DNA of 64,000 bases, taken from NCBI GenBank assembly GCA_976551045.1, contig CDPCPM010000125.1, positions 1,550,001-1,614,000 of the forward strand, in the 5' to 3' direction. Shown here one piece after another: positions 1-40,500 of this stretch. Origin of the DNA: Glaucostegus cemiculus. Taxonomy: Eukaryota. The stretch's first letter is position 1. Each line of letters opens with the position of its first letter. The position numbers were made by a program, and so were the translations under genes. The notes below the pieces were generated by a model that saw nothing but the letters and a program-made list of their open reading frames with translations, made no database searches and was not told the DNA's origin.

Positions 1-572
1 TGTCTGAATTTTGGAAGTTAGAGGTATTCTCAAATATTCCATCCTTTTGTCAGTTTTGACAACCAATAAGTCTGGAAGCGTGATTTAAGTAGATGCAGAA
101 GTTTAAATGTGCATTTGCAATTTGTGATCAGGGCAGCCAATGCTCAGTCATACCTCACCGATCTGTATTCATCCGTCTTTGTGCATGACGGAAACAGAAA
201 TCAACACATCCGCTCTCATGTTGGGGGTAAGTGAAGAGATCGGAAGCGGCTATGGGTGGCGAATTAATACGTGGAATATTCCATGCATGGAACCTTGCTT
301 TGCTGAAATTTGCCATTATCTTCCACTACATTTTCCCAAATTGAAACAAATAATTTGATTTGAGTGTTCATTATTGACTATACAGGGTAAATTGTTTAGG
401 AGCCGATGAATCATGAAACATATTTCATTGAAGCTTCACGTGTTGTCAAATCTGATATCTTCACTTCCTCCCACATGCTGACATGCAATGCACTGTTGCT
501 AATAGTGAACTCAGAAATAGAGTTAATTGGTGATTCAGCCCTATACCATGTTAAAATTTCTCTTGTTAACAG

Positions 573-608
573 AACTCCAACAAGTAAAGAAGAATTTTAC
601 GGATTGTG
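573..608 (+). CDS. micro-exon 1 (36 nt) ELQQVKKNFTDC
   Basis: tcttgttaacag|AACTCC...GATTGTG|gtgagc. Confidence 0.85.
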
Positions 609-3600
609 GTGAGCGAAGCAATGAGTTTCTTGCAGTTTAAGTCATTCAGCATTCTTCCTTGTTTAATCTCTAATTTACATGATTACTTCCGTGATTGTTG
701 AAATGAATGTTAACACATTAAAAATAGCGATGTGTCTGAATGACATTCTCCTAAGGGCATGTTACAATTGTTCAATCGATCTAGTCACACTGAGAGCTCT
801 AAATTCAGATTAAATTTGTGATGATGGATTCCAGACCAAAATTTGATCTGAGGTATCCATATTCTGAAATAAACCACCTGGGAGATTATTATTCATGTGA
901 TTTGCCTTCTTTAATGTTTCTGTTGGGAAAACTCGTGTCTTTCCACAGTAAAGACACGAGTCTACTGTGGAACGTGTTTTTACTTGAAGTAAAATGGAAA
1001 TTGCTGCGTGAAAGGTAAAATCTGTGGGATAAGAATAAAACTAACTGTTTGGGTTAATCATCACTTATCAGGAGTAAGTTAGAAAGCAAGCATTTTAAAG
1101 TTTCAGCGAAAGCGGAGAGTACAGTATGGAGCACAATCGACGGAGCTGACGACTAGTATTAATTGTTTTGTTTTTCAATGAAAAACGGAATGATTTCAGC
1201 CCTGTTGCAGAACGTCGCAACGGCCGCTCAAATAACTTCCAGATTTTATCTACTTCATAATTTTCCATTCTTCTTGTAATTAGAAAGTACTCTGACAAAC
1301 AAAATGAAAGGTAAGCGTAGAATTATGGCCGAGTTTTGGTTGTACAATTGTTTGGAACCAATATATTTTCAATTTAACTGGCCTGTTTATCTTACATCGC
1401 AATATATTTCTGAAAATAAACATCTTAGCGTCTTGTAGGCGACCATCCCCCAAGAGCAGTGACATTCCTAAAACAACTGAAGAAAATTGTTGGGTTGGCT
1501 CTCCATAGTGCTCTAAAATTTCTGAAAATGGTTTATCGCAATGAAAATGTCAGAAGTGACGAAGAATAGTGTCGTTTTCAGTATCAATTTTATTCAGCAT
1601 TAGTTCCTCGGCAACTAATAATATTTATTTTGGAGACCTGTTTAGTCACGGAAAATCAGATATGGTGAGAGTCTGCTAATACTTACACACTGAAGTTTAT
1701 CAACGACCTGTTATTTCCGCCTCTTAGCCTGAGACTTCGATAATGGCCAAATCATGATCGGCGAAACGGTTAATAGATTGCGATGGAGGCACGGAATAAA
1801 TAGTTTCAAGTTTTGGCATTTTCCGATAGAATTCTCCCAATTACTTCAGCGTCGGGGTTAATAGTGTTGCCTCTCAGATATCTGCCTTGTCTGGAAAACA
1901 AATATTCACCTTTGCTTGGAGCTTGTTCAGCCTGCGTTGACTCCCGACTTAAGTGCTTTACTAAACTTCACTGTGGTATCCTACGGTGGTGGATAAATGC
2001 TGTTTAAATGTGGTTTATTGCATTTTTTACTGCCCGCCCTATGCCTGTGGCCGCAGCTCTCGTTGTTCTTTGTCCGTTTAATGCCACGGGAAGTGTACTA
2101 AGGCATATTACGCTCGACTGGATTGTCAAGAAAAAAATATTATCAGGATTTATCTGAGTGTAAAACTTATCATTCTCGGTACAATACAAAATAATGGCTT
2201 TCGCTTACTTTCGCTCTTGAGTAAAGCTCATGAAATACTTCCAGTGTGGACAGAAATAAAATTATTCTTGGTTCCCTTTCCTTTTTGACAGAACTGCAAA
2301 AACTAAAAGAAACTATTCAAGATATCCGTGAGTATGCCTACCTTTAAAACCGAACGCATTTGGGCTAATATACGTTCACATCATTGTGTTTGATAGTTAA
2401 ATTCGGCGCATGGCATCCGTTCATCTGCGTCTCATGCTACACATCCTAAACTCCATTATATTGCTGTTGCGATGAATGTTGAGAGCCGGATATCTATGTC
2501 GACCGATGCCATATGATCTCCTTCACGCTATTACCTTAAGCAAATTTTGAACGCAGTCATGGTTTACTTTTCTTCCGTCCGCTTTACAATGAGGATTTCA
2601 AATGTTTCATCGGAGTCACTTTCTTATTAATAGAATTCATCGCAGTAAAAAAAGATTCTGTATTATGCGAACATTTCCAACGTTTAAACCTATTTTAAAA
2701 CATTGACGAGAGTGTCGCAACAAATTATAATCTGTGTCATCCATCGCGAATAAAAAAATGCATCCCCGATACAAAGTATCAGTACCAAAGACAAACAATC
2801 TTGGGCAGAAACAGTAAGAAAGTAGCTGTAATTCATTGTAACATTGTTGCTTCTATTATAAACAACACTGCCCTACGTTGACAACAGAAAGAAAGCTAAG
2901 CGGCAAGGAAAAAGGTAAGGGTATATCTGTGATATGGTGATTGGGTAAACAGTGTCTATCAACTGTATTGTAATGTCCGATTCTATTACTACATTGCACT
3001 GCATTGTATTACATTGCACAATCCGCCAGGTACTGTACTGAGTCCACATCCGAAAACGACTCAGAAACGAGCCCCTTTGCTCCAGAATCGTGTGCTTTAT
3101 ATTAAAATAATTCAAGCATTTTAAAATAAATTGACTTTCTGTCACGAGTTCAGTAATGTCTGAAAATGCCCCATACGTAAATACCCTGGCCTTCATTTGG
3201 CTGCTGACTTAATATTTTCGTTTCTCCTTGTATTCATGAGCAGTTAGCGATGGTTAATTGGCGCTGTCTTTGCTAGTGACGTATATAGCCTGTGTATAAA
3301 GAAACAAACAGGCAAAAAAAATAGAGCAGTTCAGGAAAAATCATAAACGGGATGCAGGTGGAGGTTTCGACACAGCAGGTGTGAGAATAGTGTTGATATC
3401 AAATCTGGAAACAAACTAGAGAGCGGAATTTATGATAAAATATCATCAATATTCTATAATTCAATGAACTCAGGACGGACATATGGCAATACTGCTCTGT
3501 TGGACGAGTCTTACGAAAGAAACTGAACGTATTAACGCATTGTTAAAAAAAACTGCTGTGGTGATGGAGTGTTCTAGTTCCTGCTCGCTCTTCGGGGAAG

Positions 3601-4542
3601 AGAATCCTGGATATCTGGGATGTTGCAGCACTTATGCACTGGTGCAACTAGCAGCCTATCGCTGCATATTTCGGTACTGTCATTTGAAAGCTAACTTGTT
3701 AACCAGTAAGGAGAATTCCAAACACACACCATGAGCAAATTAATAAAATGCGCAAGAGTGCAGAGTGAAAACGAGAAAATGAAACGATATTCTATCCTTA
3801 AGTTGAAGTATGCATTCATCCGCAATAGGCAAAAAGTGGGGGGGGGGACACCATAAATGTCACATATAACAGAAAATTATACACATCATTACGTGAACTA
3901 AGAGCATGAAAGAGATATGGACGATATATTAACACCTAGACAGGTGATTCAGAAATATGAAAAATGTGATCAAAACATTATATGTCTTGAACGCTTTGGG
4001 ACTGGAAATATGTTTCTGGAAAGAAATCAAGGGGAAACATTTTTACCATACATTGAGTTCAGCTGCATGGAAGTAGTATTCAAAATGAGAACATATCTCA
4101 GAATCAGAATCAAAAACAGTTTTTATTGTCACTACTATATACACATTCAGTATGCATAGGAGCGAAATACCGTACTCCACAGGTCAAGGTGCTCGTCACA
4201 TTAAAAAAAAACAATGAGTGACACAAAGACACTAAAAACATTTGAACCACAAAATTAAATACCACAACTTAAATAAATAATCTTAAAGTGAGCGTACTGG
4301 CAACGGACATTTAAAGTGTTGGTGCTTTTCTGTACGCCAAGCATCCTTTGGTGTTGGCTGGAGTGATGGAGGGATGCGGGAGTTCACAGTTCTGATAGCT
4401 TGTGGAAAGAAGCTATTGCACAGTCTGGTAGTCATTGCCCGGATGCACTGGAGCCTTCTTCCAGCTGGCAAGAGTGTAAAGAGATGGTAGGAGGGGTGTG
4501 AAGGGTCCGACATTATATTTGTGACCTTTCAAACACATCGAT

Positions 4543-4580
<38 letters not shown>

Positions 4581-7500
4581 CCGCAATAGAGGGTAGAGAG
4601 ACACCTATGATCTTCCCTGCCGTTCTCACTATTTTCTGGAGGGACTTCCGTCCAGCAGCTGAGCAGCTCCCAAACCAAATGATGATGCAGTGTGTCAGGA
4701 TGCTCTCAATGAGAATTATGTACATCTCACTGGAAAAAAAAACTTCAATGAGCATGAATGGAATTCAAAATTAACCACAAAAGAAGAAATTATTCTCCGC
4801 ATAAATACGTAAAGTTAAATGCTGATGAAAGCGAATGCAACAGTTTTGAAAAGAAATTATAGTAAACATGTGTCATTAATTAAACTGGCAACTTAAATGT
4901 GAAAGGGAAATTTCTTGATATATGCATTAAAAAGAATAACGGAACCGAAAGGTCAGGGATTTTAAAGAGTGCACATAATTAAGCATGCAATGAAATGCAG
5001 TAATATTGCCGTCACTGACCATTGGTATTTGTGTTACTCGTTAAACAATGCATGCGTCTATACATCCACGCTCGTTCAAGATAGAAAGGAAGACATCAGT
5101 GGTGAGAAAGAATACAATCTCGGCTCTTTGCATATTAAATGTGTTATCGATGACATAGCTGAGGTACGACTACACAGAAAAAAAATGTAAAGTGTCTATT
5201 GCTCTCTAATTCAGAAGTTGTTGTCTTGGCTTCGTTGGTTTGATGGCTTTTAACAACAATCTCGTCCCGTGTCGCCTCCCCATTTTAGAACTTGAAAAAA
5301 GTAGAAGCAGTCTGCTCGATTGTGGTGAGTGAGTAAACAATGTTAGCTGATCTTCCGAAAACCAGGAAGGGACTTTTTCATTGCTTTAGTCCTTCCTTTT
5401 CTTTAGTGCAGTAATTGTCATCGCACAGTCGGAACTACGAATTACCAGCAGAGTCATAAAGTGAACAAACACGGAAGGAACTGATGAGCCAATTCGAGAT
5501 CTTTGAAATATCGGACTAATCTTCAGCAGCTCTTCTTTTCCAAAGGATAAGATTTTTTAAAAAAAGATATATTTAATCCAAATTGTAATGTCTTTATTAA
5601 AACTGCATCAATATAATTTCAAAAGAAGAATTTCAGTTTAAAGAAAATGAATGCAGTCTCCGCTTCAGTCGGCTGGTCCGTCAAATATTTATCACATAAT
5701 AGACCTTTGCCACTCGTTCTGTCGGATTGTTCTGTTTATTCTTGATATATTATTCACTTCTCTTTCGCACGTTCAATGAACCGTTCTCTTCATTTGCATC
5801 TAACTGAAGTCCATCTGCATTGCTGCCTATCCCTGGAAACGTGGTATTTCCACAAATGGGAATGCTATGCAAGTGATAGTTCCACAACTGTGAATGTCAT
5901 GCATGTGAGGAAATTAGGTTTAAAAATATACGTAGTTGATTCGATCCGGCCTTTATTGTTGACAGGACATCGTAGGGTTAAATTCCGGCCACTATCTGTA
6001 AGGAAATTGTATGTTCTCCCCGTGCCTGCGTGGGTTTCCGCTGGATGCTCCGGTTTCCACCCACATTCCAAAAACGTACAGGTTAGGAAGCTTGCCGACA
6101 CTTGCGGGCTTCCCACAGAACAGTCTACTCAAAGGATGCATTTCACTGTGTGTTTCGATGTTCGTGTGACTAATAAAGATATCTTATCTTATACATTTCC
6201 AAAGCAATCAGTACACCAGTCATTAAGACCGACTTTGGGAAATTAATCTCAAAGCAAACACAGAATAAATATTGCTGCGTTTTCAGAAAAATAACATACC
6301 CTACGTGTTGTGAACTGTTATGTATCTTATGCATGCTCCTATGCATTATTTGGGTTCTTACGTATTTACACACTATCATATTTGCAATTAGAGCAAAGCC
6401 TGAACAATAAAGGGAAAGGTGAGCACCGAATGACGACTGAATTTATTTCTTTATATGAACAATCGGTTTGATATTATCTACAATTCGAATTTGTCTGTCG
6501 GACTTAATTAATTTTAGTTGCTTCTGTTTTACTTTCCACTCTATCATTAAGGGCCAGGATAACTCTATTAATAAAACTTTCACCGTAAGACGAAAGTGTA
6601 ATTCCAAAGAATCAATCATGCATAGTCCAATGGACTGCACCGTGAATGTGGATTACCGCAGATCATTTCGACTAACTTCAGCGCACAAACTAACTCCACC
6701 TCCGCTTGAACAGTCTGCGGCCACAACCTCCGCTTGAACAGTCTGCGGCCACACACCTTCAAAACACTTATTTGAAGACAATATGAACTACTACAGCTCG
6801 AGATCAGAGCTTCGGTGCCTGGAGACGGAAAGTAATGTCAGGTTCATGCGTGCCTCTGGCAAGCGTTGTCAAAAAGTTAAAGTGCCATATAAAACCCACT
6901 GTGTCTGTAACAGCCATCAGGAACCCATCGACGTAAATCACATTTAAGGCACTCGGCCCATGCTTCCTATGTCGTAAACTTCCAAGGGCTCCTGTAAATA
7001 CTTCCTAAATTTTGTGAGACTACCAGTTCTACCCCCTAACGTATTCCAGATTTCAAATACCCTCATGATGAATGTCTTCCACAAATAAAATTATCTCCAT
7101 TTTATCTTAAACTAATGCCCTCTGATCATAGAACCAAGGATAAGGGGATATATTTCTCACTACCTAATCTACGTCACTCATTCCATTAAAAATCACAGTC
7201 TGTCCACCCTGGCCTTCTGTGCTTCAAAGAAGGCAACTCCAGCTTCTCTGCATAGATGAAGAGCTCCATCCCATGGAAGTACCTGGTGAATTTCCTCGAC
7301 AACCTTTCTATAATCTCGTCCTTCATATAATGTGGTAAGCAGAACTACACACATTACTTCAGTTTTAGTATAACGAATGTTTAGATATACCATAATCTCA
7401 TTGTTTCTATTGCCTTTCTCTTGGCTAATGAAGACAAACATCACGTTTGCCGTATTATTTACCTTACTTCTGAGTGTTGCCATCAGCAGTTCTTGGATTT

Positions 7501-10500
7501 TTGTGCCAAGGTCCCTCTCTCTCTCAGAACTTTCTAGCGTCCCATCATTCATCGAATATATTTTAGCATAATTAGTCCTTCCAAATGCATCAAATAACAG
7601 TTTCAAGATTAAATTCTATACACCAAGGATCTACCTATCATAAGTACTTATCATGTTAGTACTATAGTCTCAGACGACCCTTCTCCATTTCAACATCATC
7701 AATTTCCGTTTCAGCTGCCACAAGACTAATAATACATATGGCGAAAAATAATATAAATTGTTAATAGAGCATAGAACAATACAGCACAGAACAGGCCCTT
7801 CGGCCCATCAAGCTGTGCCATCCTACAAACATCTCCCAAACTAACTCTTTCCACCCTCATATCCTACTATTCCACATTCTTCCATGTGCTTATCTAACAA
7901 TCTCTTAAACCTGTCCAACGTATCTGCCTCCACTACCACCCCAGGCAGTGCATTCCATGCACCAACCACTCTCTGGATGAAAAGCTTCCCTCTGACATCT
8001 CCCCTATACTTTCCACCAGTTATCTTAAATGCATGCCCTCTCGTCTTGAGCATCTGCGCTCTGGGAAAGAGGCGCTGACTATTAACTCTATCTATTCCTC
8101 TCAATATCTTAAACACCTCTATCAAGTCCCCTCTCATCCTCCTCCTCTCTAATGAGTAGAGCCCTAGCACCTTAAGCCTCTCTTTATATTCCATACCCTC
8201 CAATCCAGCCATCATCCTGGGAAATCGCCTCTGCACCCTCTCCAAAGCCTCCACATCCTTCCTATAATGCGGCGACCAGAACTGAACACAATATTCCAAG
8301 TGCGGCCTAACTAGAGTTTTGTAAAGCAGCATCATCACCTCTCTGCTCTTGAACTCAATCCCTTTATTTATAAAAGCCAACATCCCATAAGCCTTCTTAA
8401 CAGCCCTATCCACCTGCGAGGCAACTTTGAGTGAACTGTGGATATGAACCCCCAGATTCCTCTGCTCCTCTACACTGCCAAGAACCTTACCATTTACCTT
8501 ATACTCTGTCCTGGAGTTTGTCCTCCCAAAGTGCACCACCTCACACTTCTCTGGATTAAACTCCATCTGCCACCTGTCAGCCCAGTTCTGCATCCTATCA
8601 ATATCCCCCTGTAAGCTCCTACAGTCCTCCACACTATCTACCACACCACCGATCTTGGTGTCATCTGCAAACTTACCAACCCATCCCTCCACTCCTTCAT
8701 CCAAATCATCTATGAATATAACAAAGAGTAGAGGCCCCAGAACCGATCACTGCGGGACTCCACTAGTCACAGCCCTCTAATCCGAGGGCACTCCCTCCAC
8801 CATAACCCTCTGCCTTCTACAGGAAAGCCAATTTCTTATCCACACAGCCAACCTCCCCTGGATACCTCGACCTCTGACTTCTGAAGAAGCCTGCCATGAG
8901 GAACCTTATCGAACGCCTTACTAAGATCCATATACACTACATCCACCGCCCTGCCCTCATCAAGCTTCCTCGTCAACTCCTCAAAGAACTCTATCAGGCT
9001 CGTGAGGCAAGATCTTCCCTTCACAAAGCCATGCTGACTGTCCCTAATCAGTCCATGACTCTCCAAGTGCTCATAGATCCTGTCCCTCAAAATCCTTTCC
9101 AACAGCTTACCTACCACAGACGTGAGACTCACCGGTCCGTAATTTCCCGGACTATCTCTACTGCCCTTCTTGTTTAAGAAGGGAATAACATCCGCTACCC
9201 GCCAATCCTCCGGCACCATTCCCGTGGACAACGAGGACTCAAAGATCCTCACCAGCGGATCAACAATCTCCTCCCTCGCCTCCCGAAGCAGCCTGGGGAA
9301 TATTCCATCAGGCCCCGGAGACTTATCAGCCTTGATACTACTTAACAATTTCATCACCTCCTCCCTCTCTATAGCTACATACTCAAGAACATTACCCTTG
9401 TCAGTACTCACCGTCACATCATCAAGGCCCCTCTCCTTGGTGAATACAGAGGAGAAGTATTCATTTAGTACCTCCCCTACCTCTGCCGCCTCCAGCCACA
9501 TCCTCCCACCTTTGTCCTTAATAGGACCTACCTTTACCCTAGTCATCCTTCTGCCCTTCACATAAGAGAAAAAAAGCCTTGGGGTTTTCCTTAACCCTCC
9601 GAGCCAACATCTTTTCATGTCCCCTTCTAGCTCTCCTCAGCTCTTTCTTAAGTTCCCTTCTCACTATACTATACTCCTCACGGGCCACATCAGAGCCTTG
9701 CCGCTTACACCTTACGTAAGCCTCCTTCTTCCTCCTAACCAGTCTTTCCACCTCTCTTGTCACCCACGGTTCCTTCACTATTCCATTCTTCCTCCGTCTT
9801 GCCGGAACATATCTGTCCCCAACATCCTGTAAAACATCCCTGAACAACGTCCACATCTCTACAGTACACATCCCCTCAAAAAGGACTTCCCAATTTACAC
9901 TCCCAAGCTCTTTCCTTATAGCCTCATAGTCTGCCCTACCCCAATTGAATATCTTCCTACGCTCCCTGCACCTATGCCTGTCCATGACAATTCTAAAGCT
10001 TATCGAGGAATGATCACTGTCTCCCAGAGGCTCACCCACTAGTAGATCTCTCAACTGTCCCGGTTCATTTCCTAAAACCAGATCCAACACAGCATTCCTT
10101 CTAGTCGGTTTGTCAACATACTGCTCCAGAAATCCATCCTGGACACACTTAACAAACTCATTCCCATCCAAACCTCTGGCACTGAGCATGTCCCAGTCCA
10201 TATTTATATATGTATATAAAAAGATACAGGGATCGCTGTACCAGGCCCTGCGGTACACAACTGTTCACAGTTTCGGCCGGCACCCTATGCTGCCTATCAG
10301 CAAGCCAATCTCGGAAACAATTTTCCAAATTTGCCCTGGAAAATCCCACCATAGTCTCTTAAATTTTAGACCTATTTCTCTATGAGACCTTGCCAAAGTC
10401 TTACTGAAGTAGATCAAATGCACTATTTTCGTCGCACAAGTAGTCACCTCGTCTGAAAAACAAGATCAGTTTAGCCTGCCTGGATCCTCCCTTAACAAAG

Positions 10501-13500: not shown

Positions 13501-16500
13501 GGTGACATTGTTGAGTCATAATTGCGGTGGACAAGAATGTATCCACAATTTAAAAAGATAAAGTGAAAGAAAGATATATGTTTTTTCGCGCTTTATAGTG
13601 CTTATTTTCTTCAAATTACAGAAAATTAAGAACATGTGGCTCGTTGTGCCTTCGGCAAGATCTTATTGACGGAATTTCAAGTCCACGGAACTATTGAGTC
13701 CCTGGGGGTTTTGGAATTCTGCGAATTCGAGGCTTGGTAAATCAAGTAAAGAAATCTGAAAATCTGATCTTTTTCACAACTGAAACTTCTTTAGATGAGA
13801 GAGGCATCGGTTGCTGCATTCAGCTTGGTTTCAATAGCAACTAGAGTCATTGAAGTAATGTTGAAATCACGAGAGCTGATAAATAGATGAAAGATCTAAC
13901 AGGGCCCATCAACATCGTGGTCAACACGAGAAAATGTTCCTGTTATTTGAAACGTGCTGTATTGAGTCCAGCTCAACAGTTAGCATTTATATACATTTTA
14001 TTTATCTCTCGCAGAACTGGAAACATTGAAAAATAATATCTACGACCGGGGTGAGTGCAAAATTAACGTGTGTTTGTCTGGCTCGTGCATATATTCAACG
14101 GAGCTCAACATAGTGGTGTTTTTAAACTTTGCATCCGAACAAAGATTGGAGTTTCTCAACGGACGAAGTGTTGCTGATAATTGAGTCACTACGAAGCCAA
14201 AACAATGTTAATCGCAGATGTTAAGATGGAAATGATATCATTTGAAGTTAGCAGAGAAATGAAAGAACAAAGGACAATATTTTAAATTTCAGTGTGTTTC
14301 TGGTTTATGAGACAGCGATTGGATATTTTAGTTACATTGCCTTTTGGATAAGCAGCTTCTGAAATGTTTCATTTTCTTTAAGTGGAACGCATCAGAAAGG
14401 ATACTCTTCAAAGCCTGCAGCATAAATATACTGGAATGGAGCTTAGAAGATTAAGCAGTGTTTTTGTTAAATGTAATTGGTTCATTGCAGAACTACTGGT
14501 AAAAAACTGAAGTAACGTTGGTTATTTACTGCAAATGGCTGTCGAAGTTTAGACTGATTAATGGAAGGGTATACATTTCTGAGACAAAGTAGTATGACAT
14601 TTCCACCATCCACGAATATGTACGTGTACAATCAATGTCGAACATGAAAAGGGAGTTAATCATTGTGTGATATGGACGAATGCTATCGCTGAATAACGTG
14701 GATGAATGCAAAACAAACGAAACATATTCAAGAAGGAATATGTGAAAATAAACGTTATATTTATATAATGTCTCTCCATTCCCAGTTGCACCAGGTCCTG
14801 CATCTTAAAAAAGCAATTCTATAAAACCATTTTTCTTGGAAGCAGCTTCTGTTGAATGGAGAAACGTAGACAGCAGTTCTTCAATCGATTGGGCAGTTTT
14901 ACAAAATCTTTACGAAATTGGGTCCTGGCTTTCGGATTACAGAACAGCCGGTTTTCCTGGTCTGATCAAGATTTTTTTAAAATCTGATTGCATTGTTTAA
15001 GAAGATAATCTTATGATGTATGTACAGAAACAAGAGCAATTGGTCTCGAAATACGGTGGGATAAGATGACATCATCTTGAAGATTATTTCTACCACAAAA
15101 TAATTTTAAAATAATGTTTGATTAATACACTCTGCAACTATTGCCATGAAAGCAACGTACGGGGTGATGATAAATATATGAAAGCTGCAAAATTATATGG
15201 ACCATTCAGTCTCTGCCCCTTCCATTCAATCTAAATGGCTCTTCGTTGTCTAAATTGATCTACAGCCTAAGTAAAAGAGACATAGACATTTTTCCAGCCG
15301 TTAGGGGAACTCGCTTTCTCTCTATATATTGAAACTAAATATTTCCACTAAAAGCCATCCAGCTGTGATATTGGTCCAGCTTTTCGCTATCCATTAGTAT
15401 GATATGTTTGGAAGGCTCATAGTGCTAGAATTAATAATAAATGACGCAGAAAAATAAGTGTAACCACTCTCCACCTGTTCCATTAACCCATGTGATCTGG
15501 TGTCGCACAATCACAGAAATGCGCTTTGTCCGATCCATCCATTCCAGCGCCTTTTCTGCAACGAAAACACACTTTTAATCTCTCTGTCCCTGTTTTGACG
15601 AATGACATCTTAACTGCTACGTTAACTTTGTTTCCCTTACTGCAGATGTTACCTGATCTGATCAGTGCTTCCAGCATGTACTGGGGATTTTTATGACAAA
15701 GAAGATTTATTGCAAAGGGCATCCAATGCATCCACATTATCCCTTTTTTTCTGTTTACTTTGTACCTGTAATTTATTATTGCAAATAAACAGGACCATCA
15801 GTATGACGGCGAAACTTAAATAAAGTGAGTTTATCTTGAACCACTATATCAGAATTCCGGCATGGGAACATGTGTAAAAGGCGAGAGTTTTAGAATAAAC
15901 TGGATAATTTTGTATGAATGACTGAGCTGAAGTAATTTCACTGCTTTCCCCTTTCCATATAGGTTCTTTGTAATTCCAATAATGTGAATACGTTATTTTG
16001 CAGAACAAAGTCTGAGCAGAGCAGAAAAAAGTAAGTAAAATCATGTCTGCTATAAATTTCAGCAGATAACAAATATAAAGAGGTGAGAATGCATCAAATC
16101 GCATGGATAGATTTCAGAGAAGGCTGTTCAAGAAAGCGAGGAATGAAAGCAATGCAGCATACGCTCATAGCTTTAGATCAGAGAAAGTGGCAGAAGGTTC
16201 GAAAAGGATGGACCAGCTGACCTGTCTTTGTACATTATTTCCTATTTAAATAGCCATTGTTTTTTCCTTTTGCTCGGGACAGGGAGTAACGGCAGCCACT
16301 AACTGGTCATCCCTTATTTCCGACCGCCAAAGAAAAAAACGTAATTATTATGAAGCATTCACTTTCTGATCCAAAAGCTCCAGCGAACACGCAACCCAGA
16401 ATAGAAAAGGCATCACGGTTTCAGCCTGACCATTAGACTCATGTTTTAGAACACCTCATAGTATTACATTCAAGAGAAACGATGGAGATATTGAAAAGTA

Positions 16501-22500: not shown

Positions 22501-25500
22501 AGTAGTTTCACTTCATTGGACTCATAGAATATGGTCATTTTTATAGTACGATCAGCAACACTAATGCGACTATTCGAATTAGAAACAAAAAACATACTCA
22601 GTTCATCAAATCTGCTCACCTATTTAATAAGGCTATGGCTGATTAGATTGTAATCTTAACTCTGAATTCCCTTTTACCTACATCAATATTTCAAACACTT
22701 TCTCAGAAAGAATCTGTCTACTTTCACCTTGAAAGTATACAGAGAATCTGCTTCCATATGGGTTGATGAAGTGATTTGATTTCAATATGCGGAACAGTCT
22801 TAGAGAATGAAGAAATTGCCTTATTTCCGTTTCAAGTGGCACGCCATCAAGCAGTAGCACTTCATTCTAGATTCTCCCAAAGCAGAAATATCTGAGCTTC
22901 ATTCACACTGCCCAGACATCGTGGGTTGTGATATGATTCAATCAAGCCCTGTCTGACTCTTATAAATTCTTCCTAATTCCAACCGATACAAGCCTAGACT
23001 GTCGAAACTTTACTCTGAAGACACCGAATCAATTCTCGATATTAGGTACTAGCCTATTCAATCTTTACATTTGTGAAGAAAGGTGAAATTTGGAAATTCT
23101 TGTATTTGATCCATTTGTACAGCTGCAGTTCATCAATATGTTTAACCAAACAAGGGTGCTTGTTCCTTCCCCACCGCTCTGAAAATTCCCTGATCCTTGG
23201 TGTAACACACAATCTATTCATCTGCTGAAGATCAGCCTGTCACTCAATAAAAGTCGGGGAATATATGAAGGAAAGTATAATTTATTTTGTCCCAGCTTGT
23301 TTTCACTTCATGCCTGATTCATTTTTAGAATGTCTTACCTTGCTCACAGCCGAAACGGTAGATATGGTTTGGTAAAATAATTTTTTAAAAAAAGAAAACA
23401 CTGAATAAATCACCAAAAAATTAATATGTAAGATACCATACATGGTATTTAGTGCACGGATTCTGTTATTTGCTATGAAATTTTGTATTTTTAACTAAGT
23501 GAACATTATAAAATCGTGAAACGTGTTATAATTGTGGATGTAGAGTCGCACCTCTCGCATGTGGGGAAGTTCCAATGTGAGACACTAAAAGTAAGATTAT
23601 AAGGAGACCAATTCTCATAAACTTGTCTACCTGCAGAGTACTTAGATTGTGGAAGTAAATCCTTCTTGGAAGCATCAAAGCGACTAGCCTACAAGGGTTG
23701 AAGGATGTGTTCTATAGGTAGAAAACTAAGGGTCAACAAATTCACATCCTCTCAATTTATACCCACACGGTTTGTTCGTATCTTGATATTAATGCAGTTA
23801 GTGCGAGGAAATATCAATATTCGGAGTCATCCGGCTTTTTCTATGCTGTAGTGAATATTACTTTGGAGTCAGAGTAGGTTCAGTAACGAAGGAAACAAAG
23901 AAGGCAATCAGTGCACAGCAAGGTCTCACAAGGAGGCATGGTTAAAAATTAGATCGTGTGCTTTCGAGAACAAAACTGCTCACCCAAGGCGATGCGTTGC
24001 GGGGGTGGAGAGGAATGGGGGATGTACGTGGAACGGGAAGGGGTGGAAGCCAAGATTTGCGTTTTATGCGTGGGTTATTTAATTTGCACCTAAAATCCCA
24101 AGTCAATATAATAACGTTCCGTCAAAAATAATGCAGCATTCTCTCGAGGTTGGTGTTCAACATCTGAACACAGACTTTGTGCTCATTTACATAATGAATA
24201 CCTTTGTCAATGGAATCAGAATAGTAACTCACCTTCAGCTGAATCCCATTACGTGCGATTTTTTTTCAGATGTGGAAAAACTTAGAGCTAATCTTCAAGA
24301 AGCAGGTCAGCGGAAATATTTGATTTCATCTTCCAACAATAGCAAAGGAGCCTGTTTATTTTATTCCTCGTTCCACCCAGCGTTTGTTGTGTGCGATATC
24401 ATCCTTCTTTTCATACAGCAAGAAGACCGATCAGATCGGGGCTTCTACTTCCAAATAATTGCAGTAAACAAGATATATGTGGATTGAACATCTGACTGAT
24501 TCCCCTCACTCAAGTGTCCGGTGCAAGGTTCAGGCCTCACGTACTGGAGCCCTGCCTCCGGATCATCCTTGATAGTCCCTAACAAAACGCAAGGTGGGGT
24601 CACATTTGTGTCAAGAATAATGAGTTGGTCTAAGATAGCGTCATTGCCTTTGTCAATGGCAGCATTTCGAACACTACAATTCATTTTACTAATTAAATTC
24701 TGAAAACGGATTCTGCCAAAAATTTATGACCAACACAAACTGAACAAAAGGCTTACCGTTTACCACTTTCGTTTCTCGTTTTCAAGAGGACACTCCTCTC
24801 TTGTTTACTAACCTTTTTAATTGTTTAATAAAACTGGAAATCCCAGTTTTTCAAGAAACAGCTGTGCACACAGGTTCGGATCGAATGCTTTCATTCGAAC
24901 CCTTTCATCGGTAAACTGGGCAGAATCACTAAAAACATATTAAACTGTAATCCCTATTAAGCAGGACGAGAACATATTTTTCAGATTAACTGAGTATTTG
25001 GCCTTGTACGAGGTCTGACTTGGCGCAATGTAAAAGAAGTCAAATCCGGCACAATACTGGGGAATCCCAGCAAGACCGATTTAGATTGCTGGACATGACG
25101 GTACATGATGACACATGCTATTGTATCCGTCACTCCATCTAATTAACCTCGTGTTAATTTCGTCATCAGGGAACTCACCATCACAGCCTTCGGAACAATG
25201 CAAATCGTTGTTGAATAGTTCAGTACTTTAGCGTAAAACACACATGTCAGTCTCACAACATAATTAATATAAAATAAATCAGTTTCACTGTCCTAGCTAA
25301 CACAACCATTTATCCAAATTTCACTTTCACTAATGACACTCGGCTCTTCCTGTTCAGAAGCTCTCATTCCGCTCTCTCAGCCTAAATTTGCCAAAACATC
25401 AAATGTCAAATGAGCAGAACTTTGTTGAATGAAACATTAAGATCATAATTTCTGGAATCATTACTTTTTACGATTCAGCAACCGAATTCATCTCCGTTGC

Positions 25501-31500: not shown

Positions 31501-34500
31501 GGGCCGAATGACCCCATTTATGTCACAAAAAATTAATCTCCTTTTCATCTGATGTAACAGTGCTAAACCTAGCAGATAACTCATTGTTACCTCTCTAATT
31601 GCTGCATCTTTGTTCTAATCCATCTCAGTCGCTGATCCGTACCTTTTTTTAAAATACATCCCGGTCGTTCAAGAATGAGAGGGGCTGGCAGTAAAAAAAA
31701 ATGCAGGCTATACAGACTGGATATGGGACGCATGCTTCCCTTCGTTTACGTCTCAGGATATTGGTTAAGAGGTTCAGGGTGGAAATAAGGAGGAATTTCT
31801 TCACAGTGGTGAACCTGTCTAATTGTTGCTGGCAGAAAACGATGGAAGCTAAGTAGCGGAGTGCAGTTAAGAAGGGATGCAGATGTCCTGACACAAAATC
31901 CGTGAGTTGAACTCAGGAGAGAATGCGAATATTATAAACGGTAAATTAGTTTATTATTGCTTATTCCCATAAAGATTTACCAAGGGTTTTTATCAGAAAC
32001 TTCACAGAGACTTGGTAGAAAGCCGTTTTGAGATATAGAGCTTGGAAGCTTTAACTGCAAAATGAACAAGTTAGGTCTGGTTCTAACCTAGATTTGGGGG
32101 GACAATTATGAGTTTATAATGTGAACCATCCTTCCTAGAAACTGTCCAACGTCCTGCTCGAAGGCTGGACGAGAGTTACATAGTTCACATTTGACGGGAA
32201 ATAATATGGAATATAATACACCATAGAATTAATTTTCATATTTAATATGTACTTGTGGGTATTTCTGATTTGATATGATCGTTTTCTTCCTTTCAGAATT
32301 AAACAATCTCAACAAGGATTACACGGATATAGGTGTGGACAATAACTCTGTAAATATAGAATGAAATAAAACATATGTTACAACCAATTCTAACACGTAA
32401 ATGATCTTTACTCGATTTAAATATAAAGAAATCCTATTATTCATATATTGCATAAGATTACAATTCAATCTGTTTGTTCACTGAGACTACGCCACTTGTT
32501 TTGGCACTGTTGGAAAGAAGGTCCGATTGAGATAATAAGGAGTTTAGTAAGACTATCACTGGAAATTATTCAATGGTGGTGTGCTAAACAACCAGTACTC
32601 TATTTGTAGTCTGCTTGATTTTCTATTATATTGAATACTGAGATAATTGTTGGAGCGATACACAATTAAATCTCTGGTCTCAAATGGACTCCATTATACA
32701 GTATTTTAAAAGTGGATGGTGAGATCGATCGTCTATCAGTGTTGACATTCCAAAAATTGCCAGGATCAAGGGAAGATTCCGTTCTGTTTGGAAGTACCAC
32801 ATGTAGCCTACTTCATCTCAGGGGTTGGGTGGGGAAACAAGCGCAAGGAATTACAAACTGGTTAGCTGAACGCCCGATACAGCAACAATGTTACAATCTG
32901 TTGTTGAAGGTGGTACGGTGGGTAGAAGAAATGCAAGTTAATAGGGCACTATCGGCAAGGTTATCGGTTAATTTACTTTTCTTTCAACAAGTAACGTGCT
33001 GTGAACAAAGAAGGATCGATAAATTCACAGAAGACAGTTAGTATTAAAGTTTATCATAGAAAATAAAAGCCAATGCTTGATAACCAACAGGTGCAAGTTA
33101 ACTTTGTTTGCTCGGAGCGTGGAGTGGAGTTAAAGTTGCAATCAGATCAGCCACGACTTTATTCAATGGCAGAGTAGGGTCAGAGAGAGGAGGGAGCAGT
33201 TTTCAAGTTTAATACTGGCTTATAATGTCAGTAAAGTACACTGTGGAAATTGGATGATTAAGTGAAAATTAATGGCTGTGTCTTTTACCCCCAATTTAAT
33301 ATGGTCCGTCATACAGAAATAGAATAAGGATTATATCAATAAACGTCAATTACCGATTGAACAGATTTTAGTCACCTCAAATCGCTCGTAAATTTTAGTG
33401 GAATTTTTTGTTTTTGATGCAAAAATCTGTCAACAGGTGAAAGGTAAATGTAAATGCAATGTTTTGCTGCAGTAATTGACCAAGAATGATCGGTGCCCTA
33501 TTTTACTTATAGATGATAAGCTAAGAACCAAAGAAAAAGGTAGATAAAACTATCCTTGCCTCTATTGTTTTTTTAAATAGAAAGAAATAACCCCAATATA
33601 TTTAGTGATCAAATTTTTAACTAAAGAACAAGTTTTTTTCTGATATTTGTTTATTCTTATTCCATTAAATGACAGCTGAAACTACCACAGGACAATTTTT
33701 TTGATAAATCTTGGTCAATGAATCTCAGTGAAGTAACATATAATGAATCGTACTACACTTTTCTGACACCGCTGTGAGTTTTCCCTATTTTCTTATTCAA
33801 GTATTCCAAGTATTTTTTTATTACAGTTTAATCCCACACTATTGCTCTTCACGGCTTCAGTTGGTTGAAAAATATTATCTGTGTGCTTTAATATCAGATT
33901 CTCCTGTCGTCCTGTCACAGAAAGCAGTTGCTCCTTGTTTCTTTTTTCCATTCCCTTCTTAACTTTGATTTCTCAAATTACATCTCCACTTGCTTTCTGC
34001 TTTGAGGTGCATAATTCCAACTTCTCATATTACAACCATAACCATTCCTCATAGATATTTCTTCTTCGTCCGCCTTTTTTCTATTCTTGCCAATTGTCCA
34101 TCGTGGGGATTCTATGACACCATTTGGGAATGGCAAGCTATCCGTGTATATCTGTGCAGCTTCAAAAAATAACCTGAGAGCCAGCACACCTATTCAGGGT
34201 TAATTGTTAATGGTATTAATGGATGTCATTATGTATCAATGGTTTTTGTCATAATGATAAAATCGGCGCTGAAGGAATGGGCCATGTTGCTCACTCCATG
34301 GTTTTCCACGTACTGTGCGATTGTGAATTAACTAATTATCAATTGTGAGTCCCACTCCCAATATAGAATCAACTCCGCCCCATCTACTTTGGTTGGATTG
34401 GTGGTCAATTGCTGTATGCTCTCGTAGCTAGAAGTAAAACAAACAAACCATTGTTACTGCTTGTAATAAAAGGAAACAAGGAAGGTCCACCTTAACCTGA

Positions 34501-37500
34501 CGCTTAATTTAGGACGAAAGACCAAGGGGGCAATTTTGGAAAGAACAACAAATTTTTCCCGAGTATGGCTTAAAAGTGAAATAAACTATGGATTGGGTGA
34601 AAATAAATATAAAGTAGCTCTTGAATCTAATTGGATCAGCATATTAAGAGAAAACTGTAGGATTACGGGGTAAGATCCACTAATTAGATTTTTCATAGAA
34701 AATGTATTACTGGACCAGTTTGCAATTATTTTATTTTTACACTGATATAGAAATAATAATCTAATGAAACTTCCTGACGCATTTCTTATAGAAACTGGTA
34801 AACTGGAATTGAAACTGTCCTGCAAGGAAATCTCAGAAGAGCTTGGTCAAAAAGTCAATTTTCAGAATTCACTTCATGAATAGAGATGAGGAAAGTAATA
34901 TATTGCTCTACAGATCGTCCACCTTGCATTAAGCAAACTTTAATTATAATTTATGCATTCTTTGGTAACGAAAATCTATTCCAACAATGGACCACGGTGA
35001 TGTGTACTACTCCTAAAGTTCAGAATTGCTGTATCAATCCGATCTGTGAGATTTCAGCTGCCAAGCCAACCGGAAATGTTAGGAGAGCTGCACTTTTGCA
35101 GATCACATACAAGGAATATTAAAACGTCGATTTGTCATCAACTGTCACTGGTCTACAAAATCCCCTACAGTATGACGAAGAGTTCATCTCAAGTGCGCCA
35201 TCCAGAGTCTCTCCCTCAATGAACATCATTGAAACAAGTTATGTTGTCCCTACCTGTTAGTGCTGGTACTGCAGCTCGTACGTTGTAATTTATCAGAAGT
35301 AATAAGCTAAAACGTAGAACATATAGATTAAGAGCAGGAACAAGCCACTTCGCTCTCCAGTCCCGCTCATTGGGAGCCGAAATCTCACATTTCGGGTTGA
35401 TTCAGACGTTCTGAACTTTAGGAACGGTGGACAGCGCCGTGGTCAATTTTTGGAATTGTTCTGCTAGTAAGGAATGCATAAATTATAACTAAATTCAACA
35501 CAATCATGGCTCATCATACATTTGAGTTCTGTATTTTCACGTGCTCTGTGTGTCATGTGATGTCTTTGGCATTAAGAAGTGTCCCTCTTTCCTTCTTGAA
35601 TATAGTTAATAATTTAGTGTCGGTTTCCTTCTGTTGTAGAATTCTATAGCTTCGCCGCCATCTGCAAAACGATATTTCTCCTGGCTTCGTTTCAAAATGA
35701 CACATGCTGTACCTTGATGCTCAGATCCTTGGTTCTAGTCTATGAATCTAGATTTCCTGCATACAGTCTGCCTAGTGCTCGCAGCATTTTGTAGGTTTCT
35801 ATAAGTTCCCTTGTCATTCTGATATGCTTCAGTATAGCCGTTACCGATACAATCGTGCGTCTGTCCTATCATGCAGAGAATCATTTCAGTATTCCGTTAT
35901 TACATTCAGTCCTTGACAAAAAGGCCCTTTGTTGAATAATCAAGCCAAAACTGTACACACATCTCCAGATTTCGTCTCACTAAAGCTTGTCCAGCTGTCG
36001 GAGGACATCCTTGTTCCCGTACATATTTTCATTTGCCTTCCGAACTCCTGGCTGGACCTGAATGCTTGTTTTCAATGACTGGTGCACAAGGACACTCTGG
36101 TCTCGTTGAACCTCCTCTTTTCCCGAACTACAACCTTAAAGAAATTAATCTGCCTTTCTGATTTTCGATCCAAAGTGTTTATTCACAAGAAAGCGATAAT
36201 GCCATGCATTTACCCACTCGCGCAACTTGTCTAACTGGAATGCCATTGCATCATCCTCACACCTCACACTCCCAACCTAATCATTACGTCGTCTTCAAAT
36301 TTGCAGATGCTGAATTTAGTTCCTTCATGTAAGTCACTGACATAGATTGTGAGTGGCTGGGATTCAAGGTTTGATCCTTTGGCACAACGTCAGTCATTAC
36401 CTGTCATCCAGGAAAAAAAGCAATCTATTACCTACCTTGCTTCCTGTCTGATGATTAATTCTCAATCCTTACCAGCATATTATCCCCAATCGCATGTGAC
36501 CTACTGTTTGCCACGAACCTCTCGCGGGGCACTTTATCAAAAAGGATTCTGTAAGATCCAAACTCAAGACACGCGCAATTTCTCTCACATCTATCATACC
36601 TATTGCATCCTAAAATGAACAATCCAGTTGTTTTTTTAAGCATAGTTTCCCTTTCCCAAACCCATACGGAGTTTGCCCAGATTCGTTTGAACCACGCTGA
36701 GATGCTCTCGAGGTATGACAGTATAGACAGTGTGATTCACTTTTACAGCTAGTTATATATACTCCAAAAATCTGGAATCAGCGTCTATTATAAAAGACGT
36801 TCAAAGAACTGCAACTTTCACCCTGAATTACGCCCAACTAATTTTACAAAAACATTCCTGTTTTCGCTGTTTCTTTCTCAGAACTTAACAAACTGAAGAT
36901 CCGATTGGACGATACAGGTGAGAGATAAGGCTGGAAATTTATTTCTCCGAGTAAAGTCCATGGAAAAGAAGATTGAACTAGCCACACAGTGCGCTGCGCA
37001 GTCAAGGTTTCGACTTTTTACGCAGCCATTCAGCGCACAGTTCAGCGATTCGTAGAGCTATCTCCACTAATGTACTGAGGCGTTAGATTCCGGTGCTAGT
37101 TATTTTCGACTTTTTGTTCATTACATCTAAAAGTTTTACGTTGTTTAAATATTTTCGAACTGCATTAGGTGTCTCTGATCAGCAGCCAAAGGTGATCAGG
37201 GCAGTTCTGGAATGAGGATACAAGATGCGCTTTTGGAGGCTGTGTCATTTGCTCACTGAGCACTCCATCTCGCTGACGAGAGCGACAGCCAGGACTTAAG
37301 CTCAGTTGATGAATAGGTCACAAACCTTGCCCCTGCAAGAATACCGCCAGTGTCGTGCACAGGTGGCAGGCTTTATTGAGTACGGACCGGCCTATAAAAA
37401 ATCATTAAACTGAGTCTAAATGAACGTAAAATATGGAACTCTATAATGCATGAGTTCAGTTGTTATAACTCTGCATGTTCATTTAATGAACTTATCATAA

Positions 37501-40500
37501 ACAGATGGACAATGCGTTCAGAATATGAAAGGTAAATTTTCAGAACTTACTATCAAATTAAATCGAAAACGGTTTACCTCTTAATTGCGCTGCATATCCA
37601 GTAACTTTCACTGCCTCCTCAATATTTGAAGGGCATCTCCTTCATCTCCCTCCAGTAAAGTCAAAATGATTGATCAACCGCTTCTTCTTTAGCCCGCTGG
37701 TGTTCCAATAAAAATAAAAAGCTGGTGGGTGGTACCACAAAAAGACGTTTCATTGCCGGCCTGTGATGAAAATAAGGCCTTAAAAAATGGAGTTATATTA
37801 AACCTAAGGATTTTAGATTTTCCAGGATTATTTTATGCACAACCCTAATAGTAATAAAACTTCAAATGATTGCTTGCTGTCAGAAAATTTCCAATCATTT
37901 TTAATAACGAAACGATCAGCGTTTACTACTATGGTGCAGGAACATCTCGGCCATCATCTCGTGAACACACGTGCACAGTAATGCACGAAATTCCAGTACT
38001 TACTGTTGGTGATTGAGTACCATAGCAAAGCAAAGCCCGCCGACAGTAATCTTCCGTAGAACTTCCAGAAAACTGTAACTACCGTAAAAATAAGCTGTTA
38101 TTAATTGCATAAGTAAGATTCTTACTGTGAAGTGAGTCATAATTTCTGCTTCATGTATTGCCTAGTCACATCACAATTGGCATAATTGGTTCTAAAATTC
38201 CCTCACATGAGCATTTCAGATATTGATCTATAGAAAAATTGGAAAGAATATGTTTATTACTTATATTTCACCTTTACTTGTGTTTTATGTCAATCTTTAT
38301 TTCTACGTTTTTTTAATTAGAAACGTCTACTGGCTAGATATATACCTCTGGCAGAGGATCTTTTTGGGGATGGTTGGACAAAAATAACTTAATCTGCAGG
38401 ATATCGCTGCGGTGTTACACGTTCAATGCCGAAGGTCTAATCTTTATCAGATATTTTTAATGATTTTCTTTCCATCTAAATTTTGGTAGTTGGAAGGTCA
38501 GCAGATAATTGAACATTGTTCGCTGCCTGTCGCTGAATGTAGTCAATGTTAATGCGCGGGAGGAAAGATAACGAAAAATGTAGAAACAAGAGCCTGTAGA
38601 TGTTGAAATCTGCAGCAACACACACGTCAATTTCCCGAGATGTATGTTGCCTGACATGCTGAGTTTCTTTAGCGTTCTGTGTGTTGTTGACAAAAAATAT
38701 GCCTGCCGAACAGTTTCCAATAAATGAATAAAAGGTAGTGTTGCTATTTACTGTGGCATGAACATCGCCCTGTATTTTGGCATCAGTATCGTTTCAATCA
38801 ACATTTAGCAGATATGCAACTGGGTCAGCCACGTGAATACACTGGCAGCAAAGGGTAGATATTCTGCGTAATCTCTCATGACTACAAAAAAAAGCCATAA
38901 GACAGAAATCAGAGCCACAAAGAAGAATTCTGCACTTGCCTAAGACAGGGCAGCTCCTAAAAGCATCGTCCATGATGAAGTAGCTTGCGCGTTTATGTTC
39001 CCTTAAATATACAGTTCTTTCACCAAAGGGAGACAAAGAATGTGAGCATGACATCTGCACTGATGTTATTCATTGGGCTGCAAGGGCAGATCTCATAAGT
39101 TCAGGCGCCCTACCACAAGGAAGTACAAGACAACAAGCTGCAAGGTCTTCAATTGTTCCCGTTGCCAGCTAACCTTTCTCCTCTCAAAGGTGAAAGGAAA
39201 TGCACAATAGACTGTTTGATTTCAAAACAATATAAAATGCTGGAAATGTTCCGCTGGTCAGGGCGCAGCTGTGGGAGGAGAAACAGAGTCAACATTTCCA
39301 ATCGATGAGCTTTGGTTGGACGGCCTGTGGTATTACCTCTTTCGGAGAGACAAGAGATTGCAGATGCCAGACTATGAAGCAACAATCTACTGGAGGAATT
39401 CAGTGGGTCGAACAGTATCTGTGAGAGGAAAGGAATTGTCGACGATTCGAGTCGAAAGCCTGCATAAAGATTTAGAGTGGCGAGGGGAGTATAGAGTATA
39501 AAGAGGAAAGGGGGAGTGGTGAGATTTGAGCCCGACATGATTGGTGTACTGCGGGTGAAAGGCAGGTTGTGCAAGGTGTAGAAAGGGAGGGGGTGGTGTT
39601 GGGAGACAGTGGTAGGTGAGTGATAGCTAGAGGCAGACAAAGAGGAAAAAGACACCAATGGAGCAATGTGGGAGTCGAGGTTCGAGACAGTTGCTGGACC
39701 GGGATAACGTTTGAGGGCGTTAACTATATTTCTCTTTCCACAGATGCAGCCTCACCTGCTGAGTACTTCCAGCATTTTCATTTTTTATTTTAAATTTCCA
39801 GCATCAGCAATTCTTTTTTTTATTTTCAATAAAACGTAAGAATCACAAATATTCCTTAAATGAATAAAACATGTTTCAAATAACTTACATTTGGTTCCAA
39901 AGTTCCTTTTTTTGTTTTCCGTATTCTGTTGGAAAATCTACACTTCTTCTGAAACTAGTTTGAGAACATGTGAAATGTCCGCTGCAGTGACGACGCGGAT
40001 TTTATTGGCGGCCCTCAAACATTCCATTGATGTGCGTGATTACTTTGATGCTGTCCACGATATGTATGTCATTATTGTCATTATTCACATCACGATAACT
40101 TTAAACCTCGTTACTTCTACTGATATAGCTATTTATATGTATTTTATTATATTGTTCAAATATGGTTTTAGTGTTATTCCTATTGTTGGTAATATTATCT
40201 GCATGATTCTTATTAATGTCAGATATTATTCCCGTAATTGACGTTGTTATTTCTATTACAACAGTCCTTATTTTGTTATTTGATAATATTGTTTTGTATT
40301 GCTATCACAATAATACTTTTATTACTGTTCTGAGGAATCATTTTCGATATATTTGTCCCGGCAGCTTTTATTTACATCTGTAATCAGGCTTAACATTGAT
40401 GCTTGTTTCTTCGTATTATTTCTTATTGCAGCATTGGAAGAAAAACTTAAAACTTCAGGTGAATACTCAAATGTTTGCACAGCGAAAAAACTATTACGTC

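Follow-up and report, generated by a model that had tools for sequence, protein, structure and literature searches.

The 64,000-nucleotide (nt) stretch of Glaucostegus cemiculus DNA analysed here (the window; contig C125:1550001-1614000 of a 2.85-Gb genome) lies wholly inside an array of very small exons that extends from C125:1253843 to 1713084. Positions outside 1–64000 are given relative to the window with a sign, so that the array runs from −296157 to +163084. An exon for a terminal B30.2 (PRY-SPRY) domain stands downstream, in the same phase and on the same strand as the array. The gene, with its tiny alternating exons, is real and unusual. It is probable that the window forms the most regular part of one predicted gene of 460 kilobases (kb), in which splicing likely joins the approximately 150 symmetric micro-exons, for the most part, into one fixed chain that encodes a long, jointed coiled-coil rod with B30.2, an immune-type binding domain, at its tip. 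A sequence-only reading of positions 573–37531 had proposed a splice-tunable molecular ruler, in which the skipping of adjacent exon pairs changes the length of the rod.

The micro-exon array

Short exons bounded by AG and GT were scanned, and class profiles for 36-nt and 27-nt exons were then scored with the minus strand as the control. The plus-strand candidates of the scan alternate between 36 and 27 nt, and the profiles separate both classes cleanly from the minus strand. In leave-one-out scoring, the eight 36-nt training exons in this range reached 19–41 (minus-strand best, 10.9) and the seven 27-nt training exons reached 12–40 (minus-strand best, 5.5). Between positions 573 and 36917 there are 19 exons in strict 36/27-nt alternation, all with AG/GT ends (Table 1). 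Joined together, they contain no stop in phase 1, versus 19 and 17 stops in the remaining phases, and all 171 possible skip junctions give sense codons. The earlier claim that every exon is a multiple of 3, in phase 1-1, and that any subset can be skipped in frame therefore holds for these 19. The proposed end of the range at 37531 does not, as the exon placed there scores below the noise maximum. A borderline 54-nt candidate at 34792–34845 would, if real, interrupt the alternation within the range. Introns between 573 and 37531 measure 0.56–5.7 kb. At position 2909, inside the exon at 2888–2914, one low-depth DNA contig is short of one base of an A-run, which is either a sequencing error or a null allele.

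A scan of 664 kb gave 165 candidate exons, or 163 after two were removed (−92514 and −89043 were discarded, as they lie inside a retrotransposon-like insert). High confidence was assigned to 141 of the 163; 73 are 27 nt long, 64 are 36 nt and four are of other lengths, with a total of 1,459 amino acids (aa). The predicted array is about 141–164 micro-exons over 460 kb, and the predicted rod is 1,460–1,660 aa. The gene continues approximately 296 kb upstream of the window and 127 kb beyond 37531, with other modules, and the array contains gaps of 11 kb and 20 kb. No further array was found in an extra 100 kb on each side of the scanned 664 kb. The exon copies are old, with a mean mutual identity of about 48%, and are still open.

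Two further features of the array were seen. In its 5' part (−296157 to −227643), a higher-order block is repeated, with −281601, −246667 and −227669 at 74–81% identity and −248887 and −230491 at 89%. At +119455/+119464, two in-frame acceptors 9 nt apart share one donor and give an exon of either 36 or 27 nt.

Heptad register

The 19-exon peptide has its best hydrophobic period at 3.50, with an amplitude of 0.178 that none of 2000 residue shuffles and none of 2000 exon-order shuffles matched. Each 36-nt exon (type A, 12 aa) and its 27-nt neighbour (type B, 9 aa) together make a 21-mer, in which large hydrophobic residues, mostly Leu, occupy position 2 (10/10), position 5 (9/10), position 9 (8/10) and position 16 (9/9, all Leu). 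Position 19 is Lys in eight of nine. The sequence-only reading had stated that skipping a single exon breaks the heptad register and that skipping a pair (12+9=21 aa) keeps it. This was borne out: single-exon skips lowered the whole-chain amplitude to 0.024–0.164 (17 cases), and pair skips held it at 0.169–0.184 (16 cases).

Over the whole gene, 111 of 140 neighbouring pairs of high-confidence exons sum to a multiple of 7, versus 67 in shuffles (maximum 89 in 5000 shuffles). For register counts we used a refined chain, in which three candidates were removed (34792, −26389 and the 36-nt form of 119455) and four were added; the counts depend on these exon calls. In this chain, 43 of the 63 A-to-A periods have a length of exactly 21 aa, and no multiple of 7 occurs among the 20 that remain; six of these are 30 aa, which is the same shift as skipping one 36-nt exon, and four are 39 aa. 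The statement that only pairs are register-neutral is thus correct for the stretch that it described but not for the gene, where 20 of 63 periods already break register and other modules are present. For the whole-gene chain, the periodicity amplitude drops to 0.05. The refined chain has only one direct 36-36 junction, and many 27-27 neighbours contain an A-like 27-nt exon. The heptad register thus looks selected in the genome, although joints are built into the chain.

The single 36-36 junction joins exons −218523 and −215594 (C125:1331477 and 1334406), which are 83% identical and represent a single-exon duplication. A strong upstream acceptor would give a 45-nt form of exon −218523.

Both the heptad periodicity and the helix-forming composition of a coiled-coil rod are present. 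No proline occurs in the 1,459 aa of high-confidence exons, a count that is partly circular, as the exon model favours such codons. The rod segment of the ortholog from Narcine is predicted to be helical with a predicted local distance difference test (pLDDT) score of about 60–76, within a single-sequence fold that is poor overall (pLDDT 43). A register shift need not break such a rod. As described in PMC4786415, insertions of four residues lead to 11/3 or 18/5 and insertions of five to 19/5, both of which a helix can absorb, and insertions of two or six form short β-layers in trimers.

The B30.2 exon and its relatives

The B30.2 exon is single-copy. Its other matches in the genome are at most 41% identical, and it is the sole B30.2 exon on the stretch. 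The records nearest to it come from Narcine (80%), Hypanus (74%) and Scyliorhinus (63%), with one further record at 80%. In a quick tree of 74 domains with a midpoint root, a single branch, with a support of 100 in the Shimodaira–Hasegawa-like approximate likelihood ratio test (SH-aLRT, without bootstrap), separates the 14 family domains from the rest as a long-branched clade of their own; the 60 non-family rows are a subset of the search matches. The named members are all from sharks, rays or a chimaera, and no RING or immunoglobulin (Ig) motif was found in the models of the 14 domains. Relatives carry the automatic names TRIM39-, TRIM58- and TRIM69-like and zinc-binding protein A33-like. Annotation pipelines reduce these genes to the final exon or the final few, with models of 172–289 aa.

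The Narcine RefSeq ortholog model has seven array-type peptides and the linker exon leading into B30.2, in the same order as exons +85661 to +163058 (the match for exon +91061 is by position only). Several points weigh against our reading of one gene and one fixed chain. This model is limited to the final 78 kb of the gene, and the linkage of the window exons to B30.2, and with it the single transcript, is thus inferred from continuity. No first coding exon was found upstream. Mostly fixed splicing is likewise inferred, from genomic DNA. The Narcine model lacks two blocks that are found here, one of 4–5 exons (41–50 aa) and one of 10 exons (105 aa, or 15 heptads), which may reflect register-keeping block skipping instead of genomic loss. 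Two Narcine models begin within introns, and the RefSeq models of the family are partly unreliable. At both missing blocks the flanks join 27-to-36 or 36-to-27, and alternation is kept, but with only two cases this lacks significance and would be explained just as well by genomic loss.

No full-length ortholog was found with the B30.2 query among proteins of 302–2000 aa, nor with the ortholog rod segment; both are weak negatives, and the window exons are too short to serve as queries. The best match in that size range, a fused TRIM model, was rejected as an ortholog since it is unrelated outside B30.2.

A paralogous micro-exon rod gene, mostly of 27-nt exons, lies on the minus strand at C274:546033-597572 and also ends in B30.2. 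It has 31 candidate rows above threshold, two of which are overlapping forms. Its B30.2 is 71% identical to Narcine XP_069775384.1, and it has exons absent from that Narcine model. Upstream on the minus strand of C274 there are an RRM-RRM-zinc-knuckle gene (610003-617187) and an Ig V + Ig C gene (707816-710327). The Ig exons, 110 kb upstream of the paralog, were considered as part of it and rejected as a separate gene, because the RRM/zinc-knuckle gene intervenes (115 of 123 open reading frames (ORFs) scanned). The model of another family member, Leucoraja XP_055510696.1, begins with a hydrophobic, signal-peptide-like stretch, to which nothing found upstream of the present array corresponds.

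Splicing of the array

Donors were scored with a generic vertebrate matrix taken from general knowledge; the gene-wide set leans strong since the donor score had aided exon finding. The donors of the 19 exons have a mean of 3.94 bits, versus 4.14 for simulated ordinary donors. Five of them score no more than 2.5 bits (28% expected), and four no more than 1 bit (16% expected). The weak donors named by the sequence-only reading, gtgcca, gtcaat, gtgtgg and gtactg, do exist (exons 12391, 19665, 32297 and 22422), but the set as a whole is not unusually weak. All four have AG at −2/−1. Across 137 exons, G at +5 accompanies 57 of the 103 donors that have AG and 29 of the 34 that lack it (Fisher P 0.002), which is the usual compensation.

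Current RefSeq annotation of four family genes in three species has isoforms that differ by internal gaps of 9, 6, 9, 9 and 9 aa, none a multiple of 7; two of these five are the linker exon, and three come from paralogs without strict alternation. An older chimaera model has one additional gap of 7 aa. No annotated gap is a 21-aa pair.

If splicing were loose, with no pair bias, single micro-exons would be skipped at moderate rates, and the resulting spread of in-frame rods, some with additional kinks, would be tolerated or used for variety. The single-exon-sized isoform gaps are consistent with this, as is the 30-aa period, by which the gene already encodes the shift of a single 36-nt skip, and a helix can absorb four or five inserted residues, with β-layers accommodating two or six in trimers (PMC4786415). 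However, the near absence of 36-36 junctions suggests that such shifts carry a cost, and the two gaps at the linker exon do not concern the rod. We consider loose splicing unlikely, though not negligible.

The ruler would require regulated skipping of adjacent 36+27 pairs, giving rods whose lengths form a ladder with 3-nm steps, and we regard it as a long shot. Its arithmetic of frame and heptads holds, and so does its step, at about 3.1 nm per 21-aa pair. Each such step is only ~1.3–1.4% of a rod of 1,460–1,660 aa and ~220–250 nm (with the rise per residue taken from general knowledge). Two adjacent pairs of weak donors occur in the window (19665/22422 and 32297/33513), but 1.6 are expected (P 0.52), and over the whole gene weak donors are adjacent in five cases versus 8.6 expected, with a lag-1 correlation of −0.23. 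The introns of 0.56–5.7 kb show no visible coupling, and the isoform gaps argue against heptad steps. As described in PMC5938342, the length of the chicken BG tail varies via splicing, which is a precedent of a kind, but the splicing reported there is intron read-through that truncates the tail. The pair ladder thus finds no support in donors or isoforms. In a broader form of the idea, pairs or blocks that are register-neutral would be spliced out, which would set the reach of a 200-nm B30.2-tipped rod by cell type. The two blocks missing from the Narcine model, whose absence leaves the alternation intact and one of which is 105 aa long, are a hint of this; we find it equally doubtful.

Under the favoured reading of a mostly fixed chain, the protein would be a parallel dimer or trimer rod of about 220–250 nm inside the cell. 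It would serve as a spacer or tether for presenting B30.2, resembling the cytoplasmic half of a butyrophilin or of chicken BG minus the membrane head. The register would be maintained by selection on the genome, with joints built in, and occasional skipping, mostly of single exons, probably occurs. The 36+27 pair is probably the unit by which the gene grew. This is proposed because of the alternation alone, and co-duplication of A and B partners was not shown (Mantel rho −0.03 and 0.07; P 0.67 and 0.13). The frame symmetry of the exons is probably a by-product of duplication. Exons can persist through duplication only when they are symmetric, and frame neutrality is therefore expected without alternative splicing.

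Comparison with known systems

Long coiled coils made from many tiny exons are described for chicken BG, or zipper protein, with tails of 13–36 exons of 21 or 24 nt (PMC4046983) and with lengths that differ among genes, alleles and transcripts (PMC4046983, PMC5938342), the last of these by intron read-through (PMC5938342). As presented in those papers, each BG exon is one heptad and register-neutral by itself, whereas the unit here is 12+9 aa. The BG genes described have Ig-V and membrane exons and no B30.2, in contrast to the ~150 exons, the B30.2 and the lack of any Ig or membrane exon found here. In butyrophilins, as described in PMC12841164, Ig domains and a membrane segment are combined with B30.2 and with heptads that vary in number. 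The cytoplasmic half of BTN/BTNL proteins shares the order of heptad repeats followed by a terminal B30.2 (PMC4046983, PMC12841164). On these accounts, butyrophilins have few heptads together with IgV/IgC and a membrane segment, and the B30.2 of the present gene belongs to a separate, long-branched clade. The small symmetric heptad exons of both systems and the terminal B30.2 of butyrophilins were found; IgV/IgC and transmembrane exons were not. The gene is built like a much-enlarged inner half of a butyrophilin or BG, yet we do not class it as a member because no Ig or membrane exon was found upstream.

The match in exon design and B30.2 end could also mean that the array is the tail of a membrane-bound butyrophilin/BG-like protein with Ig and membrane exons far upstream. 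Several genes in a row would be another version. The first exon was not found, and this and the 11-kb and 20-kb gaps would be consistent with either. Against this, no Ig or RING family was found in 92 plus-strand ORFs of at least 85 aa in the 150 kb upstream, nor in 80 ORFs of at least 100 aa in the next 100 kb (ORFs cut at a border could be missed in both). There were no hydrophobic phase-1 candidates for a transmembrane exon in 144 kb upstream, versus two on the control strand. The upstream DNA carries single-exon G-protein-coupled receptor (GPCR) genes of the same orientation, and the stretch has one B30.2 exon only. We consider both versions very improbable. A decaying relic is hardly credible, given ~141 exons at 48% mutual identity that are all open with intact splice sites and a B30.2 that is 63–80% identical in four other records.

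B30.2-class TRIM proteins also have a coiled coil followed by B30.2, but the N-terminal RING and B-box of TRIM proteins were found neither in the upstream ORFs scanned nor in the five family models scanned. The enterophilins, which are cytosolic mammalian proteins with a long leucine zipper and B30.2, offer a further parallel, a soluble long heptad rod ending in B30.2. Enterophilin-1 is mentioned as binding SNX1 (PMC13749957).

Feature coordinates and neighbouring genes

Table 1. Exons of the window and downstream exons of the gene. A, 36-nt type (12 aa); B, 27-nt type (9 aa).
Position	Strand	Feature	Evidence	Remark
573..608	+	36-nt exon A, phase 1-1	profile score, phase	
1284..1310	+	27-nt exon B	profile score, phase	
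2292..2327	+	36-nt exon A		donor TCC/gtgagt, 0.1 bits, weak; not named by the sequence-only reading
2888..2914	+	27-nt exon B	profile score	
5289..5324	+	36-nt exon A	profile score	
6392..6418	+	27-nt exon B	profile score	
11130..11165	+	36-nt exon A	profile score	
12391..12417	+	27-nt exon B		donor AAG/gtgcca, −0.8 bits, weakest of the gene's 137
14015..14050	+	36-nt exon A	profile score	
16004..16030	+	27-nt exon B	profile score	
17812..17847	+	36-nt exon A	profile score	
18967..18993	+	27-nt exon B	profile score	
19665..19700	+	36-nt exon A		donor CAG/gtcaat, 1.0 bits
22422..22448	+	27-nt exon B		donor AAG/gtactg, 0.5 bits; with 19665, best candidate for a skipped pair
24270..24305	+	36-nt exon A	profile score	
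30036..30062	+	27-nt exon B	profile score	
32297..32332	+	36-nt exon A		donor TAG/gtgtgg, 2.5 bits
33513..33539	+	27-nt exon B		donor AAG/gtagat, 2.7 bits
34792..34845	+	borderline 54-nt candidate exon (18 aa), phase 1-1	score 20.0 (minus-strand best 19.1)	single-copy DNA
36882..36917	+	36-nt exon A	profile score	final secure member of strict run
37505..37531	+	doubtful 27-nt exon	score 10.2, within noise (minus-strand best 19.1)	closes the range of the sequence-only reading
40432..40458	+	atypical 27-nt exon	score 30.1	
40850..40876	+	27-nt exon B		
45435..45470	+	36-nt exon A		
46494..46520	+	27-nt exon B		
50425..50448	+	probable 24-nt joint exon (8 aa)	score 17.0	has Cys; peptide resembles exon +85661
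52311..52337	+	27-nt exon B		
60917..60952	+	36-nt exon A		
63252..63278	+	27-nt exon B		
C125:1713058-1713084	+	27-nt linker exon	counterpart accounts for the 9 aa by which two annotated Narcine isoforms differ	
C125:1713892-1714412 (+163892)	+	terminal B30.2 (PRY-SPRY) exon with stop, phase 1	SPRY E 5e-16; PRY E 0.007, below cut-off	

The GPCR genes upstream are three single-exon 7tm_1 ORFs on the plus strand (C125:1232964-1233863, 1107886-1108818 and 1013578-1014538, the last split across two frames). An NLR (NACHT) gene lies on the minus strand at about C125:1028941-1030704. Downstream of the gene, where the scan covered 148 of 189 ORFs, a single-exon ORF of 517 aa for a voltage-gated potassium channel (Kv; BTB_2 and Ion_trans) is found at C125:1800327-1801877, 86 kb from the B30.2 exon. 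None of 38 matches to class I and none of five to class II alpha of the major histocompatibility complex (MHC) is located on C125; as the assembly comprises 1,511 contigs, this count speaks for one contig and not for chromosome-level linkage.

Significance

A literature search, which did not cover subscription journals, found no description of this B30.2 rod family or of pair-biased heptad skipping. The 460-kb array of 27- and 36-nt exons is striking, and its B30.2 belongs to a clade of cartilaginous fishes. The building block of two exons and three heptads contrasts with the one-heptad exons of chicken BG. The gene is a natural test bed for the splicing of micro-exon arrays and for the question of whether protein register shapes exon skipping. 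Pair-biased skipping, if true, would directly exemplify selection on splicing for the geometry of a helix.

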